From assembly GCA_964651115.1 (NCBI GenBank), contig CAZYXJ010000001.1, forward strand, positions 213,077 to 277,076: DNA of 64,000 nt, written 5' to 3'. This document shows, in pieces, positions 15,669-23,507 of the stretch. Made by a program: the position numbers and the translations under genes. The first letter of the stretch is position 1. Every line of letters begins with the position of its first letter. Under the pieces are notes generated by a model, which had not been told where the DNA came from, did not search any database, and saw only the letters and a program-made list of their open reading frames with translations. The DNA comes from an uncultured Candidatus Saccharibacteria bacterium (lineage in GTDB: Bacteria; Patescibacteriota; Minisyncoccia; Phycocordibacterales; JACOZG01).

Positions 15669-16109
15669 TTAATGAAGTAGGGCCTTAAGCGCGGCTAGTG
15701 ACTTGGGCCACAGATCCTCAAACATGGGAGCATATTCGTCCGGGACGTCAATCAGCTCCACCACCAGCTCCGTACCGTCGCCGTGCTCGCGAAAAGTATA
15801 ATTTTCGTAAGCGACGTGGCCATCGGGCCAGGGCTTTTCCTCCCCCGCTATCACCTCGCCGTAATGCTCAATCGAGATATATTCGGGCGGCCGACTTTCT
15901 TTAATCCGCGAGAGCATCCCGCCCTCCACGCCCGTCTCAGGATGAGGGCCCAAAAACAACATTTTGCTACCCTCGCTCCAATCACCGCGGTAATACGACC
16001 CCTCGCAAAACACTTTGGTCCACTGACGATAGGTGGCATCCTCGAGCATTGTCTGCCAAACCTTTTCCCGTGGCGCCTCAATCTCAATCGAATATTTTAA
16101 ATTTTTCAT
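15669..16109 (-). CDS. SRPBCC-superfamily protein (AHSA1/activator-of-Hsp90-ATPase-like or polyketide-cyclase-like fold)
   Basis: 146 aa. MKNLKYSIEIEAPREKVWQTMLED...YRQW is characteristic of SRPBCC ligand-binding proteins. Confidence 0.55.
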   Translation of the reverse strand: MKNLKYSIEIEAPREKVWQTMLEDATYRQWTKVFCEGSYYRGDWSEGSKMLFLGPHPETGVEGGMLSRIKESRPPEYISIEHYGEVIAGEEKPWPDGHVAYENYTFREHGDGTELVVELIDVPDEYAPMFEDLWPKSLAALKALLH

Positions 16110-16130
16110 ATATTTAAGTTACGGATAATC

Positions 16131-16439
16131 TCACTTTTTCTCCCAGCGATCTTTATCTCGACTATTCAACTTAGCCATCACCCGATCAAAGCCGCGATCC
16201 ATATCGAGGCCCAGAGAATTAGATAAACAGGTTAAAGTGAAGATAACATCAGCAACCTCTTCCTCAATATCCTGGACATCCTCAGTATCTTTTTTCTTTT
16301 TAGGACCAAAACGGTGATTTATTTCCCGAGCCAACTCCCCAATCTCTTCCGTCAAACGGGCCATTATTTCTAGGGGTTTAAAATAACCGATCTTATATTG
16401 TTGCACCCACCCCTCCACCTCTTGTTGGATTCTTTTCAT
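16131..16439 (-). CDS. MazG-type nucleotide pyrophosphohydrolase
   Basis: 102 aa, ...LTEEIGELAREI...EEVADVIFTLTCLSNSLGLDMD... (EExxE/D motifs of the MazG domain). Confidence 0.6.
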   Translation of the reverse strand: MKRIQQEVEGWVQQYKIGYFKPLEIMARLTEEIGELAREINHRFGPKKKKDTEDVQDIEEEVADVIFTLTCLSNSLGLDMDRGFDRVMAKLNSRDKDRWEKK

Positions 16440-16446
16440 ACGGCCA

Positions 16447-16890
16447 TTATTCCATATATTCTATTTCCAACCCAAGCCGCAGGGCCTGATCATGCTCCCA
16501 GCGTGCACCGACCGAAGACTGCCAATCAGGGAGAAAATACAACTTATGAACCAATTTAGACTCAAATATTGGCAAGTAAAAATCGATTAACAATAAGTCA
16601 TCGTAATGCTCAAACTCGCGTCGACTCTTAATGCGTTGCATCGGTACTTCAAAAGGAACTTGATCAAAAATCTCGATCCCTCTTTGTTGCAAACTAGCGA
16701 TCGTCACTTCGAATCGCTTTAAATTTTTCTCCACCGAACCAGCGCCACCGGTCGAAATCGGACCGCACACCTGGCCAATGGGTGGGGGCATTTTCCGCAA
16801 CACTTGTTCAGCAACAATAAAAAGATCCCGATAAGTCTCCGCTCGGTCTAAGCTGTCATAATGTTCTTGATCCCAATACTTAAGTGACAT
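16447..16890 (-). CDS. DUF4406-like / nucleoside 2-deoxyribosyltransferase-like protein
   Basis: 147 aa. CGPISTGG...FEVTIASLQQRGIEIFDQVPF...LPDWQSSVGARWEHDQALRLGLEI matches the flavodoxin-like DUF4406/NDT fold pattern. Confidence 0.45.
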   Translation of the reverse strand: MSLKYWDQEHYDSLDRAETYRDLFIVAEQVLRKMPPPIGQVCGPISTGGAGSVEKNLKRFEVTIASLQQRGIEIFDQVPFEVPMQRIKSRREFEHYDDLLLIDFYLPIFESKLVHKLYFLPDWQSSVGARWEHDQALRLGLEIEYME

Positions 16891-16903
16891 AAAATTGTAA
16901 ATT

Positions 16904-17305
16904 TTACCTTATTTTCTTAACGACGGTGCCGTAAAAAATTGATGATCTGGTCCTGGAACCACCCGACTCAAAACCCACGAAAAGGCTGGGGTTTTTTATA
17001 ACCTTGTAATAATCTCCTCTGAAATAAAAAGTTTCTTTTAAATTGAATCTTTCAGCATTATAAATCTCTTCAAAAACATAAACTCCCCCTCCACGAGATA
17101 ATGGCTCACCCTCAAGCACCGCCACCTCATCACTCGATTGATACATTTTTTGAGAGTCAAAAAACTCTATATCGCCAAAAGGAATACGATTCTTTACTTC
17201 AGCTAAAAACGTTTTCTTTATATTAACGTCAAATGCCCAACCCAAAGCAAGAATACCAACCGCAATAAAAAACGAAAATTTATGCCTCAAGATAAAATTA
17301 ATCAC
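16904..17305 (-). CDS. Hypothetical protein with N-terminal TM anchor
   Basis: 133-aa ORF, lower GC than the backbone. Confidence 0.35.
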   Translation of the reverse strand: MINFILRHKFSFFIAVGILALGWAFDVNIKKTFLAEVKNRIPFGDIEFFDSQKMYQSSDEVAVLEGEPLSRGGGVYVFEEIYNAERFNLKETFYFRGDYYKVIKNPSLFVGFESGGSRTRSSIFYGTVVKKIR

Positions 17306-17697
17306 AAAAAAGATCGATAATCGGGATAATTGGCCTTAATAATGGATCTCCATGCAGCCGTTTCATTCGTGCTGCCCAAATCACCCTTGGTATAAACTAA
17401 CAGAACGTGTACAGTGGCATTGCTTTTTTTGATAGCAATAATACACCTGTTACCCGAAGCGTGGCGCGACTTACCAGGTCCAGCAATCCGAAATTCCGTT
17501 TTACAAATCTTGACGTCGCCAGCATCACAAATTATCTCCACACGACTATTAACACCGATCAGTGATTCTATACGTTTAAATTGCTCCGCAATAGCATTCC
17601 ATGTAACATCCCAAGCATTTTTATACTTCTTCTTAAATTTTGAGATGTAGTGTCGGTCGGCAAATTTTTCGACAATAACCGCATAACTAGTAGACAT
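17302..17697 (-). CDS. Putative type II toxin (RelE/ParE-superfamily, Gp49/HigB-like) paired with a Panacea-domain antitoxin
   Basis: 131 aa. Its 3' portion ...FRIAGPGKSRHASGNRCIIAIKKSNATVHVLLVYTKGD... resembles the conserved core of Gp49/RelE-fold toxins. It overlaps the upstream HTH-Panacea gene by 11 nt. Confidence 0.45.
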   Translation of the reverse strand: MSTSYAVIVEKFADRHYISKFKKKYKNAWDVTWNAIAEQFKRIESLIGVNSRVEIICDAGDVKICKTEFRIAGPGKSRHASGNRCIIAIKKSNATVHVLLVYTKGDLGSTNETAAWRSIIKANYPDYRSFL

Positions 17698-18370
17698 GGT
17701 CCGGATTTTCCTGTGTGATTAGTTCGTAAGGAATAGCCTCGTCCGGCGCACACAGCTTGTACGGAAGCTGTTCATGAGTAAAATCAACAATTTCCTTAGT
17801 TCTTTTATCTTTCCATTTTGTGGAAATCTTTTTCATAAGTTCAACCTCTTCGCCCTGCAGAAGATCAAGCTTTTGACGGAGGGCTCCTGCACCAATTGAC
17901 ACGAGCATTGCGTCACCCTTGCGGTCTATTGTGATCTTCCCCTCATCTTCAAGTTCGTCAATCGCACGGAAATACGGATCGGGTACCGGACCGTAGGCAC
18001 GACGTAAGTACTGCATTCCGCTCATGCTTTCTAATTTTTCGTAATACCAAGCAAAATCGGCAAGGTAGAGAAGCTTTGCGAGTTTTGTTTTTGGCACCCG
18101 CCCATCAGTTGATGCAGGAAATTTAAGATACGCAATAATCATCTGCTTGTATTTTTCATACTGTGGAGCTGTTACTTTTGAAAGTTCTTCGATTGAAATA
18201 CCATACAATTCGCATAGTTTTTCTGCTTCCCGTAACGTCATTTCGCGTATTCCACGCTCTACGGCCATATAGGATTGGCGCGAGAGTCCAAGTTTTTCGG
18301 CTACTACTAACTGCGAAATACCCCTCTTTGTTCTAAGGGCTTTTATAAATGATGCGTATTTGGTGCTCAT
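17687..18370 (-). CDS. Antitoxin: XRE-family HTH fused to a Panacea (DUF4065/SocA-like) domain
   Basis: N-terminal HTH_XRE (LRTKRGISQLVVAEKLGLSRQSYMAVERG). C-terminal ...KLAKLLYLADFAWYYEKLESMSGMQYLRRAYGPVPDPYFRAIDELEDEGKI... matches the Panacea domain. Start at the internal Met (cat 18368-18370). Confidence 0.7.
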   Translation of the reverse strand: MSTKYASFIKALRTKRGISQLVVAEKLGLSRQSYMAVERGIREMTLREAEKLCELYGISIEELSKVTAPQYEKYKQMIIAYLKFPASTDGRVPKTKLAKLLYLADFAWYYEKLESMSGMQYLRRAYGPVPDPYFRAIDELEDEGKITIDRKGDAMLVSIGAGALRQKLDLLQGEEVELMKKISTKWKDKRTKEIVDFTHEQLPYKLCAPDEAIPYELITQENPDHVY

Positions 18371-18730
18371 GTCTAAAGTGTACATAACCTGTGTATAAAA
18401 TACAAACACAGGGTGTTGATATTCTATACACGCTCGTGGTAAAATTGTTGCACTGGACTAGTCGAACCAGCAGAAAAATAAACTTAATACCTTAGTACTA
18501 TGGCAAAAACCTCAAAAAAGGCCGGTAGGGCTGCATCAAAAGTGTTGCGGAGCAAAAGTGCAGGAAAAAATCCAAAGATAGCTGCCGCTTCTGCATTGCG
18601 ACAGCGTCAAGACCGCCAATAGAGGCTAACTTGAGCAAAAGTTACTGGCTTATAGAGAGCTCGCGGAGAAAGAGAATTGATTGGGTTACAGCCATTCACT
18701 AACAGCCCTAGAAAAGTATGCCTCGCTCAC

Positions 18731-18758
18731 ACAAAACCGCACAATGTGCGGTTTTGTG
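18731..18758. terminator. Perfect palindrome (acaaaaccgcaca-a-tgtgcggttttgt) immediately 3' of the R-M gene; candidate bidirectional terminator
   Basis: 13-bp arms read from the sequence. The T-tract is modest. Confidence 0.4.
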
Positions 18759-21700
18759 TTATAAGGCCACCTCATCAATTTCTCTCATAATTTTGTCTGT
18801 TTCCACCAAAGCAACAATAATTTTTTGATAGTGTTCAATATCGCCATTTGAAAGCATGCGACCCTTGCGGTCTTTCAACCACTTCTGCGCGGGTTGGTAG
18901 CCGCCGATGTAGAACGACCATGCGATCTCGGGGACGTTGCCAAAATACTGCGTTGCGTTGATGTATACACTGTCGCCCTTGCGAGTGATTTTCTCTACCT
19001 TGTTCGTGCCGACCTCGGGGTAGGTAGTGATGGGGGTGCGTACCGCCGCTGATTCGAGCAGGTGAAGTTCCCGGAGTTGTTTACCGAGCGCCGCGAGTGC
19101 GGCGAACTGCGCCTTATCTTTCGGATATGGGACGCGGGGGAAATCTATTCTAAGAAACTCCTTGTACTTCTCACGGTAGTTTGGTGAGTGCAGAACGGCG
19201 TAGACATAATCAAAGATATCCTCGGGCGTTGGTTCTTTTCCGACCAAAGAGGCAATCTGCTTCACAATGTCGCGGTTGAGGTTCGGTACACGAGTGCCGT
19301 CCCCCGCGTGTAAATAAAGTGGGACGTTCATGGCGTTTGTGGCTGTCGTTCCAGACAAGAATATTGCTTCGGAAATGGTATTTGTAACAAAGACGTGGTT
19401 GTAGTCAGCATCGCGGACGCTTTTTGTGACCAAAAGTCCGAGATTAGATCCTTGTAGGTAATGCTTCATTATTTTGTCTACCGGACGCCAAACTAGCGAT
19501 GAGTGGTAAAAGATCAGACGATCATCAAAAGGACGATATGCGATCTCTTTTACAAAGTTCGATAATTCATTTTCTTTCCGCAAAGCATCTCGAGCTTTCA
19601 ACGCATCCCAACCTTTTTTATCGCTGATACCAACCTCGGCGCACAATGCCCTTTGTGTGTTTGTTGTTGAGTTACGGAAACGTTCCGCGTTGGAAGCAAG
19701 ATTCTGGGTGTCACTGCCAATAACAAAGGCGTCTCTGGCTGTAACCACCCCATTCCCGTTTTCAATAAAGAGGTCTTTGATAGAAATGTTTTTTATGTAT
19801 TGAGCTTTTGTTTTCTCATCTCGCACTGTCCATTCGTAGTTTTGCGACTTGGGAGCGAGCTCGTGCCAGTGCATGGAGCCAAGTTCCATTTCATTGAGAC
19901 ACTCGAACTTCGTTCGCTTCGTTCCGAAACAGTCGGCGCGATAGACGTTGGCGAGAGAGCCCGAGCGTTTTCCTTTGCGGCGTACGCCAATAAGAATCGA
20001 GACGCCCTGTTTGATAGCGAACACGTTTTCATCTTTGCCACCATCGGGGGCTTTTTCTTTCTTGTTGGAATTTCCGTGGAGGTCGAGAACGTAAATCTCG
20101 CTGAACGTCTCCATGAGGTGATAGCGCATACCCCGAAACGTTGGGTTGTCGATGTACCCGTGTGCAGTAATCATTCCGACAATACCCTCACCGGTTTGTT
20201 CGATAAGACTCTCGGCGAAGCGAATGAACTTCACGTAGTCATCGTTTATCCATTTGCTGTTGCGTTCTTTGAGCTTTTGCGAAGTACCCGGCTCAACCTT
20301 GTAGACATCGTGCCCTGTGTACTCCTTGTTACTTGACTCTCCTGCGTAGGGGGGATTTCCTATCACAATCATTATCGGTGTGTCGTTCTTGATGCGAGCA
20401 GCGGCACGACTCTCCTCACTAATACTCTGTGCGAGACCGAGCATGCCAAAGAGCGAATCGTCAGGGCGCTCCGCTTTCTCAAGAGAGTTCGTGAGATACA
20501 CGCCGATACGGTCTTTGAAATCTTTTGCACCGGACTCGCGGAGGGTGGCGGCAAGTTTGAGGTGAGCGATGGTATAGGGCGCCATCATAAGCTCGAAGCC
20601 GTGGAGACGAGGGAGGAGGTCTTCATTCACGTAGCCACTGAATCGTCCTTCCTGTCCGGCGAATGTGCGACGGATGAGACGTATCGTCTCGTTAAGGAAG
20701 GTGCCAGTGCCAGTTGCTGGATCGAGCACCTGCACTTTGTGAATGGTGTCCTTCACTTTCTTGCCCTGCACCATTCGCGTGATATCTATCTTCTTCGTGT
20801 CGGCGAGACCTTGGGGTAGGTCGAAGTCGCGTTTGAGAATGGCATCAACCGAGCGCACGATGAAGTGCACGACGGCGGGTGGTGTGTAATACGCACCAAG
20901 CTTCTTTCGCTCTACTGGGTCGTATGCTTTGAGAAAGTCCTCGTAAAAGTGGATGACAGGGTCGGGCGCCGCCTGTTCTGCGCCCCATAGGTCTTGCTTG
21001 TAAATCTGTTGCATGAGTGCGCGGACATTAGCGTTGCCGAACACTTTGCAGAGGTCGTCGACGATTGGCTTCAATCGGTCGTCAAAGTCAGCACCGGCGA
21101 TGTGGTCGAAGAAGCGACGCAGGAGAGGGTTTGAGTGCGGGATAAGCTCACGCGCTTCTGCTCGTGTGAAGTCTTTGGGGGATTCATCGTGATACCTCGC
21201 GACGAAAAGACCGTACACGAGCGTCTGCGCATACATGTCGGTGAAGTCGTCGAGCGAAAGATCGTGGATGAGTTGCGATTTGAACGCCTCGTAGATGTCG
21301 AGGAGAGGTTTATTCTTGGGACTATCCGTTTTAAGAAAGCGCAGCAGATTGGCGCGGAGGCGCTTGCCGTTCTCTCCCATGATTTCGGCGAGGCGGTTCG
21401 CACGGCGCACCGGCTCCGCCGCATCTTCGAGGAAGGCTCGAATTGTGGTTTCTAAAAGGGCATATGAGTTTCCGTCCGGTGAAAGTGTCTCAAGGTCACT
21501 TATTACGATGGGGTCGCAATACGCTCCGCCATGCTTGTAGAAGCGAAACTCGAGATAATTCGTAAGGATGAGGTTAGCATAGCCAAAGTAACGTTTGAGT
21601 TGTTCCCCCTTGACGATATCGTCGAGGTTCTCCCCGAGACGCTTGGTCTCGACATAGCCGACTGGAAATCCGCCCTTGATGAGGGCAAAGTCGGGGGCAC

Positions 21701-21863
21701 CAAACTCGATCTTTCCCGGCTCATTCACCGCGTCCACGTCGGGAAGCATTGCCTCAAGTAGCACCTTAAGTGCGGGGCGGTGCTGGTGTTCTAGATCTTT
21801 GGTACCCACGCTGGAAGTCGCACTACGAGTTCGTGCAATTGCAGAAAGGTATGTTTCTAGCAT
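18759..21863 (-). CDS. Type IIL/IIG restriction-modification enzyme, MmeI-like single polypeptide (PD-ExK nuclease + N6-adenine methyltransferase + specificity domain)
   Basis: About 1034 aa from the MLETYLSAI start (cat 21861-21863; the upstream 90-aa extension overlaps the neighbouring gene). N-terminal D-x13-ETK nuclease motif (APDFALIKGGFPVGYVETKRLG). Central SAM-MTase with the NPPY motif (VIGNPPYAG) and large C-terminal target-recognition region, as in MmeI-family enzymes. Confidence 0.75.
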   Translation of the reverse strand: MLETYLSAIARTRSATSSVGTKDLEHQHRPALKVLLEAMLPDVDAVNEPGKIEFGAPDFALIKGGFPVGYVETKRLGENLDDIVKGEQLKRYFGYANLILTNYLEFRFYKHGGAYCDPIVISDLETLSPDGNSYALLETTIRAFLEDAAEPVRRANRLAEIMGENGKRLRANLLRFLKTDSPKNKPLLDIYEAFKSQLIHDLSLDDFTDMYAQTLVYGLFVARYHDESPKDFTRAEARELIPHSNPLLRRFFDHIAGADFDDRLKPIVDDLCKVFGNANVRALMQQIYKQDLWGAEQAAPDPVIHFYEDFLKAYDPVERKKLGAYYTPPAVVHFIVRSVDAILKRDFDLPQGLADTKKIDITRMVQGKKVKDTIHKVQVLDPATGTGTFLNETIRLIRRTFAGQEGRFSGYVNEDLLPRLHGFELMMAPYTIAHLKLAATLRESGAKDFKDRIGVYLTNSLEKAERPDDSLFGMLGLAQSISEESRAAARIKNDTPIMIVIGNPPYAGESSNKEYTGHDVYKVEPGTSQKLKERNSKWINDDYVKFIRFAESLIEQTGEGIVGMITAHGYIDNPTFRGMRYHLMETFSEIYVLDLHGNSNKKEKAPDGGKDENVFAIKQGVSILIGVRRKGKRSGSLANVYRADCFGTKRTKFECLNEMELGSMHWHELAPKSQNYEWTVRDEKTKAQYIKNISIKDLFIENGNGVVTARDAFVIGSDTQNLASNAERFRNSTTNTQRALCAEVGISDKKGWDALKARDALRKENELSNFVKEIAYRPFDDRLIFYHSSLVWRPVDKIMKHYLQGSNLGLLVTKSVRDADYNHVFVTNTISEAIFLSGTTATNAMNVPLYLHAGDGTRVPNLNRDIVKQIASLVGKEPTPEDIFDYVYAVLHSPNYREKYKEFLRIDFPRVPYPKDKAQFAALAALGKQLRELHLLESAAVRTPITTYPEVGTNKVEKITRKGDSVYINATQYFGNVPEIAWSFYIGGYQPAQKWLKDRKGRMLSNGDIEHYQKIIVALVETDKIMREIDEVAL

Positions 21864-22008
21864 GTTTTGAATTCCTGTATAAATAGCCTTCGGCCATATT
21901 ACCACCAAGCACAGGAGTTCACCACTCCAACGGCCCGGCTCTCTAAGTAACAGAAAAGACCCTTGCTTAAAAGCAAGGGTCTTGATTAGCGATTCGGGGG
22001 GGTAAGAA

Positions 22009-22584
22009 CTACGTTTTACGCCGGCGGCGAGCGCACAGTGGCGCCGCCAACCCAAGGAGCACGAGGCTCGTCGGCTCCGGCAAGCCGGAGCCCCGAAGAA
22101 AGATGAGGTTGGTACGGAACTCGTCCGCACCAAACTCTAACCAATTCCCCACGGCGCTGGGGTCTGAACTCCAACTGAGCCGCTCCAACTGCAAGGCATA
22201 ATAGCCCGACAGTCGAGGCTCTAGCATCGCACCAACATGGAAGCGCCTCTTCTCCCCCTCCGCTATTAAGTAAAAGTCTTGCCCATCACTGGGGGAAGAA
22301 CTTGTACTCAAAAACGCCATCATCGGCGATCCTACCCCCGGGGTGGCGAAGTTGAAGAACGAATACTGGAGCAGCGGTGATGGCCTGGCGGACAGCCGTG
22401 GAACATAGACATCCCCGGAGATGGCGATGATATCGAACCACATCCGGAAGTAACCGATGCTCCCCTCCTCGAAGTCTTTCTGCCAGACTTCCGCCTGACT
22501 GGAAACCAACGTCGCCACCGGCGACGCTACCGCAACGGAACACGTCACCAACGCCGCCGCCACAAAGGAAAACAGACGGTTCAT
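22009..22584 (-). CDS. Secreted PEP-CTERM sorting-domain protein
   Basis: 191 aa with N-terminal signal peptide. The C-terminus ...SGLPEPTSLVLLGLAAPLCARRRRKT* is PEP + TM + Arg-cluster, the PEP-CTERM/exosortase signal. Confidence 0.65.
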   Translation of the reverse strand: MNRLFSFVAAALVTCSVAVASPVATLVSSQAEVWQKDFEEGSIGYFRMWFDIIAISGDVYVPRLSARPSPLLQYSFFNFATPGVGSPMMAFLSTSSSPSDGQDFYLIAEGEKRRFHVGAMLEPRLSGYYALQLERLSWSSDPSAVGNWLEFGADEFRTNLIFLRGSGLPEPTSLVLLGLAAPLCARRRRKT

Positions 22585-22691
22585 TTTTAGCCCCTTTTTC
22601 TTTTTAAGGTCCTAGGAAAGTTGGCCCAACGCCAACTGACTGCTCAACTATATACTATATTTTCTATATTGTCAATAGGTAGGGATTCGAG

Positions 22692-23507
22692 CTATCGTTG
22701 AGCGTGTTTTAGGATCCATTTGGTGTGTTCGTTTTTGGACTTCGACCAAGCGGCAATGAGCTTTTTAGCTTCTTTTGGGTTTACCTTGACCCAGTCTCGG
22801 ACATGATTGGCGACTGATTTTTTGACAAATTTTATCTCGTCTTCTTTGAGTAATTCGAGGATTTCAAAAATTGGCTTTGGGTTCTCGTTCCACACATCAA
22901 GCTTCGGTGCCCAGGGTAGTTTGGGGCGAAGTCCTTCGGTTGCAAGTCGGCGGAGGTGAAAATTTTTGCTTTTTGCCCATTTGTTACATATCGCAAGAGT
23001 TTTCTCAGGATACTTACGAGCATACGGACGAATAGCATATTCTCCCGTGTTTCTTTTGGTAATTTCTTCGATAGCTTTTATTGACAGCGCAAAGTGATCA
23101 AGCCCGTATTTCTCGACAAATTTTCCAACCGGCATGAGCCAATAAAAATTAGTAAACATACCAGTTTCTTCTTTGTTTTCTGGCCCGAGTATTTGCAAAA
23201 GGATATCAAGTGCTTCCGGATATTTTTCTGGTAGATACTGCTTGAGTAGATCCGCAATGATTCCGATCCGTTGCGTGTAGCTCTTACCAACAACTGCTCG
23301 TTTAGTATCGCGAACAAAACCTTTCGTATCAAAATTTTTATATACGGCCGATATTTTCTCCGCAAGCATTACTGCCAAATCTTCTCCGAACACCTCCGTG
23401 ATTGAGATTCTGTCAGTCATTGCGGTGGATTCTGAAATTAGTTCGAACGGAATTCGCTCCTCGCCGCGCACACTAACAATTTTAAGTTTTTCTTTAGCGG
23501 AATACAA
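22692..23507 (-). CDS. DNA alkylation repair protein (AlkD/AlkC-like HEAT-repeat glycosylase family)
   Basis: 271 aa all-alpha protein. ...FVKKSVANHVRDWVKVNPKEAKKLI... resembles the DNA_alkylation family C-terminal signature. Low GC. Confidence 0.5.
   Translation of the reverse strand: MYSAKEKLKIVSVRGEERIPFELISESTAMTDRISITEVFGEDLAVMLAEKISAVYKNFDTKGFVRDTKRAVVGKSYTQRIGIIADLLKQYLPEKYPEALDILLQILGPENKEETGMFTNFYWLMPVGKFVEKYGLDHFALSIKAIEEITKRNTGEYAIRPYARKYPEKTLAICNKWAKSKNFHLRRLATEGLRPKLPWAPKLDVWNENPKPIFEILELLKEDEIKFVKKSVANHVRDWVKVNPKEAKKLIAAWSKSKNEHTKWILKHAQR

Follow-up and report, generated by a model that had tools for sequence, protein, structure and literature searches.

Panacea antitoxins (PanA) pair with dozens of unrelated toxins (PanT), with which they form complexes and which they neutralise, and 343 PanAs carry a helix-turn-helix (HTH) domain (Kurata et al., 2022; PMC8832971). 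Several PanT clusters in Dataset S1 of that study are RelE-, HigB-2-, YoeB- or ParE-like by HHpred and are marked there as predictions. For cluster pT15/T14, HHpred gives HigB-2 at 99.7%, the antitoxin comes first and the entry reads 'notest'; T14 members with an HTH-PanA and a spacing of -11 occur in Ca. Saccharimonas aalborgensis and a TM7 strain, and members with a spacing of +2 in Pedobacter species (PMC8832971). The NetFlax study describes Panacea as either neutralising the toxin directly or serving as an accessory, possibly sensory, domain (PMC10440598). Here we analyse a gene pair, panA and panT, in a 64,000-nt stretch of contig CAZYXJ010000001.1 (the window), and conclude that it is likely to be a chromosomal type II toxin-antitoxin (TA) module of the PanAT kind with a HigB-2/RelE-like toxin. 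By its architecture the pair very probably belongs to the catalogued T14 cluster or is its sister; with T14 it shares, in a comparison by description only, an HTH-PanA, the antitoxin-first order, the -11 and +2 spacing classes, a HigB-2-like toxin and members in the candidate phyla radiation (CPR). HHpred puts the T14 representative very close to HigB-2, whereas the toxin family of the window has no RelE-type match in Pfam. A search toward T14 that started from a homologue labelled 'Bacteroidia' returned only Patescibacteria-type proteins and no Pedobacter.

The initial annotation described two minus-strand open reading frames (ORFs) that overlap by 11 nt, the first encoding an XRE-type HTH followed by a Panacea domain and the second a toxin (Table 1). 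The ORF list and the shared sequence ATGTCTACTAG confirm the arrangement, and profile searches confirm both antitoxin domains, with matches above the gathering score to Pfam HTH_3 (E 1.5e-12, 47.7 bits) and to SocA_Panacea PF13274 (E 2.6e-11; 44.8 bits, where the gathering score is 25.7; the match spans positions 1-112 of the 113 in the profile). We collected 2455 PanA homologues, some of which NCBI names 'type II toxin-antitoxin system antitoxin SocA domain-containing protein'. The AlphaFold2 model of PanA (pLDDT 82) places the HTH at residues 3-64, a linker helix at 69-83 and the Panacea domain at 94-200, followed by a C-terminal tail. This tail is modelled at lower confidence, yet it is invariant in sequence (FTHEQLPYKLC-PDE-IPYELITQ), and the Panacea domain is the best-conserved part of the protein in the PanA alignment (A3). 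Fold searches with the PanA model gave matches through the HTH only, the nearest being restriction-modification (R-M) controller proteins, HipB and SinR, and no solved structure of a Panacea domain came up.

The linkage between the two genes is strict and greatly exceeds what chance would give. With toxin alignment A1 as the query, we scanned a single genome from each GTDB species and found a toxin relative in 129 of these genomes, from which 80 loci were kept; including these, 93 related loci were examined. A PanA homologue lies immediately upstream and on the same strand in all 80 of the GTDB species loci, full-length apart from two that are cut by a contig end. The 11-nt overlap recurs in 62 of the 93 loci, and a 2-nt gap is seen in 9. 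Around the pair, 61 loci gave 59 clusters of nearest upstream neighbours, and 74 loci gave 68 clusters of nearest downstream neighbours. In the window, the pair lies in a 2.8-kb patch of low GC content (about 16000-18800; 0.36-0.46, against 0.50-0.58 on both sides), where it occupies the high-coordinate half and not the left edge of the low-GC island, as had first been stated. Because of the strict linkage, the variable context and the deviant composition, we regard the pair as a mobile TA module: panAT is an autonomous, horizontally mobile two-gene unit that is functionally independent of the adjacent R-M gene. The toxin was not found in plasmid records, phage records or IMG/VR contigs.

The genomes that encode the toxin belong almost entirely to Patescibacteria/CPR, and include Zambryski-, Lloyd-, Yanofsky-, Nomura-, Kaiser-, Uhr-, Komeili-, Azam- and Taylorbacteria, Paceibacterota and Magasanikiibacteriota. 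Organism labels look unreliable at a number of loci (L014, L016, L044, L055 and L058, along with other GTDB loci), and several third-party (TPA) metagenome-assembled genomes (MAGs) that carry the family are labelled 'uncultured Candidatus Saccharibacteria' or 'Gammaproteobacteria', and one 'Bacteroidia'. Such labels should not be used to judge the taxonomic range of the toxin family.

The second gene encodes a protein of 131 amino acids that the initial annotation placed outside the textbook toxin families, and it is indeed a stranger to the curated libraries. Searches of Pfam, NCBIfam, PHROGs and PADLOC gave no match (Pfam and NCBIfam at E up to 1), nor did phmmer against PDB sequences or a narrow-family profile against the PDB. 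Across 99 members of the family, the Pfam and NCBIfam searches gave one weak PF06296 match (E 0.014), otherwise noise, and nothing in NCBIfam. Close homologues number 371, almost all of them 128-134 amino acids long and unannotated, and a profile search of 1.84 billion representatives expanded the family to 203 clusters at 50% identity, one member of which bears the UniRef name 'Addiction module toxin RelE'.

The fold prediction is more informative. From an input of 43 homologues, AlphaFold2 gave a model (pLDDT 77, pTM 0.73) with a strand at residues 8-11, helices at 17-24, 29-41 and 43-46, strands at 53-58, 62-69, 83-90 and 95-103, and a helix at 112-123. This is the RelE/ParE layout of an N-terminal strand, two helices, an antiparallel sheet with three or four strands and an optional C-terminal helix. 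Foldseek against the PDB ranked HigB2, an archaeal RelE and HigB highest, with probabilities of 0.97-1.0, while ParE toxins reached scores of 6.4 or less in the fold comparison. Of the proposed likeness to Gp49/RelE-fold toxins, the RelE part is thus upheld by the model and the fold search; the Gp49 part is not, as PF05973 gave no match at E up to 1, nor among the 99 members at E up to 0.1. With its antitoxin domains, its linkage and this predicted fold, the pair is supported as the Panacea TA pair that had been proposed. We conclude that the 131-residue protein belongs to the RelE superfamily, within which it is divergent and uncurated, with a predicted fold nearest to that of HigB-2.

Residue conservation points in the same direction. 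In a broad alignment of the 99 diverse members (30% mean identity), Glu112 is invariant, and Lys23, Lys66, Phe69, Ser77, Arg84, Leu99, Tyr102, Lys104 and Thr113 are at least 90% conserved. The profile built from this alignment, searched against PDB sequences, returned Vibrio cholerae HigB-2 as its top five matches (E 0.011), pairing 'S-G-N-R-c-I ... L-L-v-Y-s-K' with 'G-G-S-R-I-I ... L-T-I-Y-G-K'. In this weak alignment (E 0.011), Arg84, Tyr102 and Lys104 of the toxin fall on HigB-2 Arg64, Tyr82 and Lys84, in the numbering of Hadzi et al. (2017), and extending it by one residue places Arg70, which is invariant in the close subfamily, on Arg51, the fourth active-site residue, a correspondence limited to that subfamily. 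Alanine substitutions of HigB-2 Arg64, Tyr82 and Lys84 lowered activity 350-, 1200- and 3000-fold, respectively (Hadzi et al., 2017; PMC5416850). The likely active face of the toxin would lie on the β-sheet, formed by Lys66 and Arg70 on strand 2, Arg84 on strand 3, and Tyr102 and Lys104 on strand 4. We consider the toxin most likely a ribosome-dependent mRNase, with somewhat less confidence in this activity than in the module itself.

Compared with V. cholerae HigB-2, the ribosome-dependent mRNase of HigBA2 (PDB 5JA8, 5MJE and 8A0X), the window toxin has about 15% identity, is 20 residues longer, and carries an additional conserved N-E-T-x-x-W motif at the C-terminal helix that includes the invariant Glu112. 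The gene order also differs, with the toxin first and HigA2 as the antitoxin in higBA, but the antitoxin first and an HTH-Panacea antitoxin in panAT. Pyrococcus horikoshii aRelE (PDB 1WMI), Streptococcus pneumoniae HigB and YoeB are 8-15% identical to the toxin, with no detectable sequence relationship, and their antitoxins are RelB, HigA and YefM, where the window has PanA. The B. fungorum MqsR:PanA system resembles panAT in combining a RelE-related mRNase toxin with a multidomain PanA that has an autoregulatory HTH (PMC10440598). There, however, an MqsA-type zinc-binding domain carries out neutralisation, whereas the window PanA has no such domain, so neutralisation must come from the Panacea domain or the C-terminal tail.

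Several points weigh against the reading of the pair as a PanAT module with a HigB-2-like mRNase. None of the curated RelE, ParE, Gp49, HigB and YafQ profiles (PF06296, PF05016, PF05973 and PF05015, with NCBIfam RelE/ParE) matches the window toxin. The toxin model is of only moderate confidence (pLDDT 77), and its loop 70-83, which contains the invariant Ser77, Arg78 and His79, falls to about 59. The sequence link to HigB-2 is weak, at E 0.011 across 40 residues. Glu112, which stands with Thr113 at the start of the C-terminal helix and is the sole strictly invariant residue, has no counterpart in the HigB-2 catalytic set. Gyrase poisons also occur within the RelE/ParE fold, and the same PanAT module could instead carry a ParE-type DNA gyrase poison or another non-RNase activity; given where the HigB and ParE structures stand in the fold comparison, and the toxin residues that align with HigB-2 catalytic residues, we think this unlikely. 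A further point concerns the antitoxin, since in B. fungorum PanA the HTH-Panacea portion alone failed to neutralise the MqsR-type toxin, and direct neutralisation by Panacea cannot therefore be assumed (PMC10440598).

The last of these points is the conservation of the two proteins. Identity to the nearest relative is 94% for PanA and 84% for the toxin, and mean column identity is 81% in A3 and 75% in A1, which are not matched samples. PanA is the more conserved of the two, the opposite of what TA modules usually show. The unusual conservation of PanA, together with the lack of a match to any curated toxin family, would suit a plain regulatory operon in which the 131-residue protein is non-toxic, a domesticated RelE-fold co-regulator or partner of an HTH transcription factor. 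This appears very improbable, because the residues that align with the HigB-2 catalytic residues are kept in 99 divergent members, and because a strictly linked, overlapping gene pair that is patchily distributed, low in GC content and set in variable contexts bears the signature of a TA module.

The region upstream of panA carries a conserved regulatory architecture. The palindrome TGT-N11-ACA is found in 68 of 77 distinct upstream regions, compared with a mean of 2.8 and a maximum of 8 in mononucleotide shuffles, and two copies are present in 41 of the 77, compared with 0.03 in the shuffles. The copies lie 21-23 nt apart, mostly 22, and their distances to the ATG are fixed at about 37 and 60 nt. 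All four half-sites vary together, being GTGT/ACAC in the window and ATGT/ACAT in most relatives, and such a concerted change is what is expected of symmetric protein-binding sites. The proximal palindrome and a conserved -35-like hexamer overlap; the hexamer reads TTGACT or TTGCAT in relatives and TTGTAT in the window, and is followed after 17 nt by a -10-like TACACT or TATACT that ends 6-8 nt before the panA ATG in relatives and 6 nt before it in the window. The putative promoter was placed by aligning the upstream regions of relatives such as L009 and L012, the latter having TTGACT-17-TATACT with 6 nt to the ATG; a consensus promoter scan of the window did not call it. No Shine-Dalgarno sequence is visible before panA, and this, with the proximity of the -10 element to the ATG, suggests from the sequence that the panA mRNA is leaderless or near-leaderless throughout the family. 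The panA frame is open over 17687-18409 on the minus strand and has alternative in-frame starts at ATG 18385 and GTG 18409, but ATG 18370 is most likely the start.

We propose the following course of events only as a model. Both genes would be transcribed from one promoter, and PanA, through its HTH and probably as a dimer, would bind the two 19-bp palindromes (TGT-N11-ACA), which are two helical turns apart. Bound at operators that overlap the -35 region, PanA would repress the operon; by analogy with most type II systems, we infer HTH-mediated autorepression of panAT. PanA is also predicted to contact the toxin directly and hold it inactive; the neutralising element would be either the core of the Panacea domain or the invariant tail at the C terminus. 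Once freed, for example by loss or degradation of PanA or by a trigger during phage infection, the toxin would most likely enter the ribosomal A site and cleave mRNA, bringing translation to a stop.

The neighbourhood of the pair has to be weighed against this model. Directly upstream, at 18759-22133 on the minus strand, lies a Type IIG/Type ISP R-M enzyme (Type_ISP_C E 3.5e-83; PADLOC REase_MTase_IIG 5e-274), an arrangement conserved in Zambryskibacteria relatives. The PanA HTH is most like R-M controller (C) proteins, the tandem palindromic operator candidates resemble C-boxes, Mrr, NYN or Fic genes are neighbours at other loci, and a sensory role for Panacea has been put forward by the NetFlax authors (PMC10440598). 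On these grounds, the pair could be mainly a sensor-effector unit for phage defence by abortive infection, acting with the adjacent enzyme, with Panacea as the sensor of the trigger or PanA as a C protein. We find this quite unlikely. The R-M gene adjoins the pair in just 11 of the 93 loci, all of which except L045 are close relatives of the window, and the other neighbours are nearly all different; a functional tie between panAT and the R-M gene was rejected for this reason. The R-M gene also has its own terminator hairpin, and the candidate operators are at the putative panA promoter about 330 nt downstream, while no PADLOC system model matches the toxin. PanA does not qualify as a C protein, given its added Panacea domain, this sparse adjacency and the placement of the candidate operators at its own promoter. 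A defence role would in any case fit alongside the TA mechanism and would not replace it.

A variant of the TA reading is that, within the RelE superfamily, the toxin forms a separate clade, uncurated and near-confined to Patescibacteria, whose target or trigger may differ from that of classical RelE/HigB, for example through RNA cleavage outside the A site or through phage or host-cell cues sensed by Panacea in episymbionts; the strictly co-evolving HTH-Panacea partner may neutralise it via the invariant C-terminal tail and not via the Panacea core. The clade has an invariant signature of its own (Lys23-Lys24, Ser77 and N-E112-T113-x-x-W116), and we offer the variant tentatively, as a rather unlikely case.

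Read as a PanAT module with a HigB-2-like toxin, panAT represents a known kind of module, well conserved but ordinary, that is found mainly in ultra-small CPR/Patescibacteria, and the family does not overturn current understanding. It adds to the Panacea repertoire a strictly paired and well-delimited family of HTH-PanA and HigB-2-like toxin, with no fewer than 203 clusters (50% identity) and a presence in 129 GTDB species. The family is mildly novel in having a toxin outside the curated profile libraries, near-confined to CPR and with its own N-E-T-x-x-W motif, alongside a conserved regulatory architecture. The family falls outside every Pfam, NCBIfam, PADLOC and PHROG model, so the toxin is at present annotated 'hypothetical protein'. 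The reduced genomes of CPR bacteria retain and exchange such modules, and the pair provides a clean test case of how a Panacea antitoxin that lacks a dedicated neutralising domain would counter a RelE-fold toxin. The conserved tandem operator candidates and the apparently leaderless panA transcript amount to concrete regulatory predictions.

Table 1. Features of the panAT locus, in window coordinates.
Feature	Position	Strand	Description
panA antitoxin gene	17687..18370	-	227 amino acids from ATG; HTH, linker helix, Panacea domain and conserved C-terminal tail
panT toxin gene	17302..17697	-	131 amino acids; predicted RelE/ParE-superfamily fold; candidate HigB-2-like active-site residues K66, R70, R84, Y102, K104
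panA/panT 11-nt overlap, ATGTCTACTAG	17687..17697	-	panT start and panA stop; candidate for translational coupling, read from sequence
PanA XRE-type HTH DNA-binding domain	18182..18346	-	Residues 9-63; HTH_3 match
PanA Panacea (DUF4065/SocA-like) domain	17759..18082	-	Residues 97-204; PF13274 match
O1, distal operator candidate	18413..18431	-	GTGT-N11-ACAC palindrome, 19 nt
O2, proximal operator candidate	18391..18409	-	GTGT-N11-ACAC palindrome, 19 nt; overlaps putative -35
Putative panAT promoter	18377..18405	-	-35 TTGTAT 18400-18405; 17-nt spacer; -10 TACACT 18377-18382
Perfect 15-bp hairpin	18729..18759	-	End of upstream R-M gene; upstream boundary of module

Several further observations concern the sequences that flank the pair. 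The best sigma-70-like site of the region lies at 18416-18445 on the plus strand (TTGATA-18-TAAAAT with a TG extension, 10/12 matches) and is directed away from panA. Its -35 element is inside O1, and it faces a very basic 40-amino-acid ORF at 18500-18622 on the plus strand (MAKTSKKAGRAASKVLRSK...); this may be a divergent promoter pair that shares the candidate PanA operators. This small ORF has no family match. Zambryskibacteria relatives have an unrelated DUF1508 gene at its position on the same relative strand, and the idea that the ORF is a DUF1508 remnant was rejected. No Rfam families were found in 16000-19000.

The R-M ORF as listed begins at a TTG and is about 100 amino acids longer than its orthologues in relatives (990-1013 amino acids), so translation probably begins at an internal ATG near 21860 (MLETYL...). 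At L014, the toxin is 82% identical to that of the window and the adjacent R-M gene is kept. Just past the R-M gene, a second short stretch of low GC content (22600-23500; 0.40-0.43) contains a 271-amino-acid ORF at 22692-23507 on the minus strand.

On the other side of the pair, a 133-amino-acid ORF at 16904-17305 on the minus strand occupies the lowest-GC part of the patch (0.355-0.37) and has an N-terminal hydrophobic segment and no family match. Its GTG start overlaps the TGA stop of the toxin gene by 4 nt (GTGA) with no terminator between them, and it may for this reason be co-transcribed with panAT. It was rejected as a third gene of the module, as its sole counterpart was in L002, a short contig with an identical copy of the toxin, and it is unrelated to the 133-amino-acid ORF that lies downstream in L012. 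The DUF4406 and MazG genes next to it were likewise rejected as parts of the module, being unlinked to panAT in other genomes. These two adjacent genes, at 16131-16890 on the minus strand in the same low-GC patch, encode a DUF4406 protein with a PHROG match to nucleoside 2-deoxyribosyltransferase and a MazG-type pyrophosphohydrolase, and are a phage-like nucleotide-metabolism gene pair.
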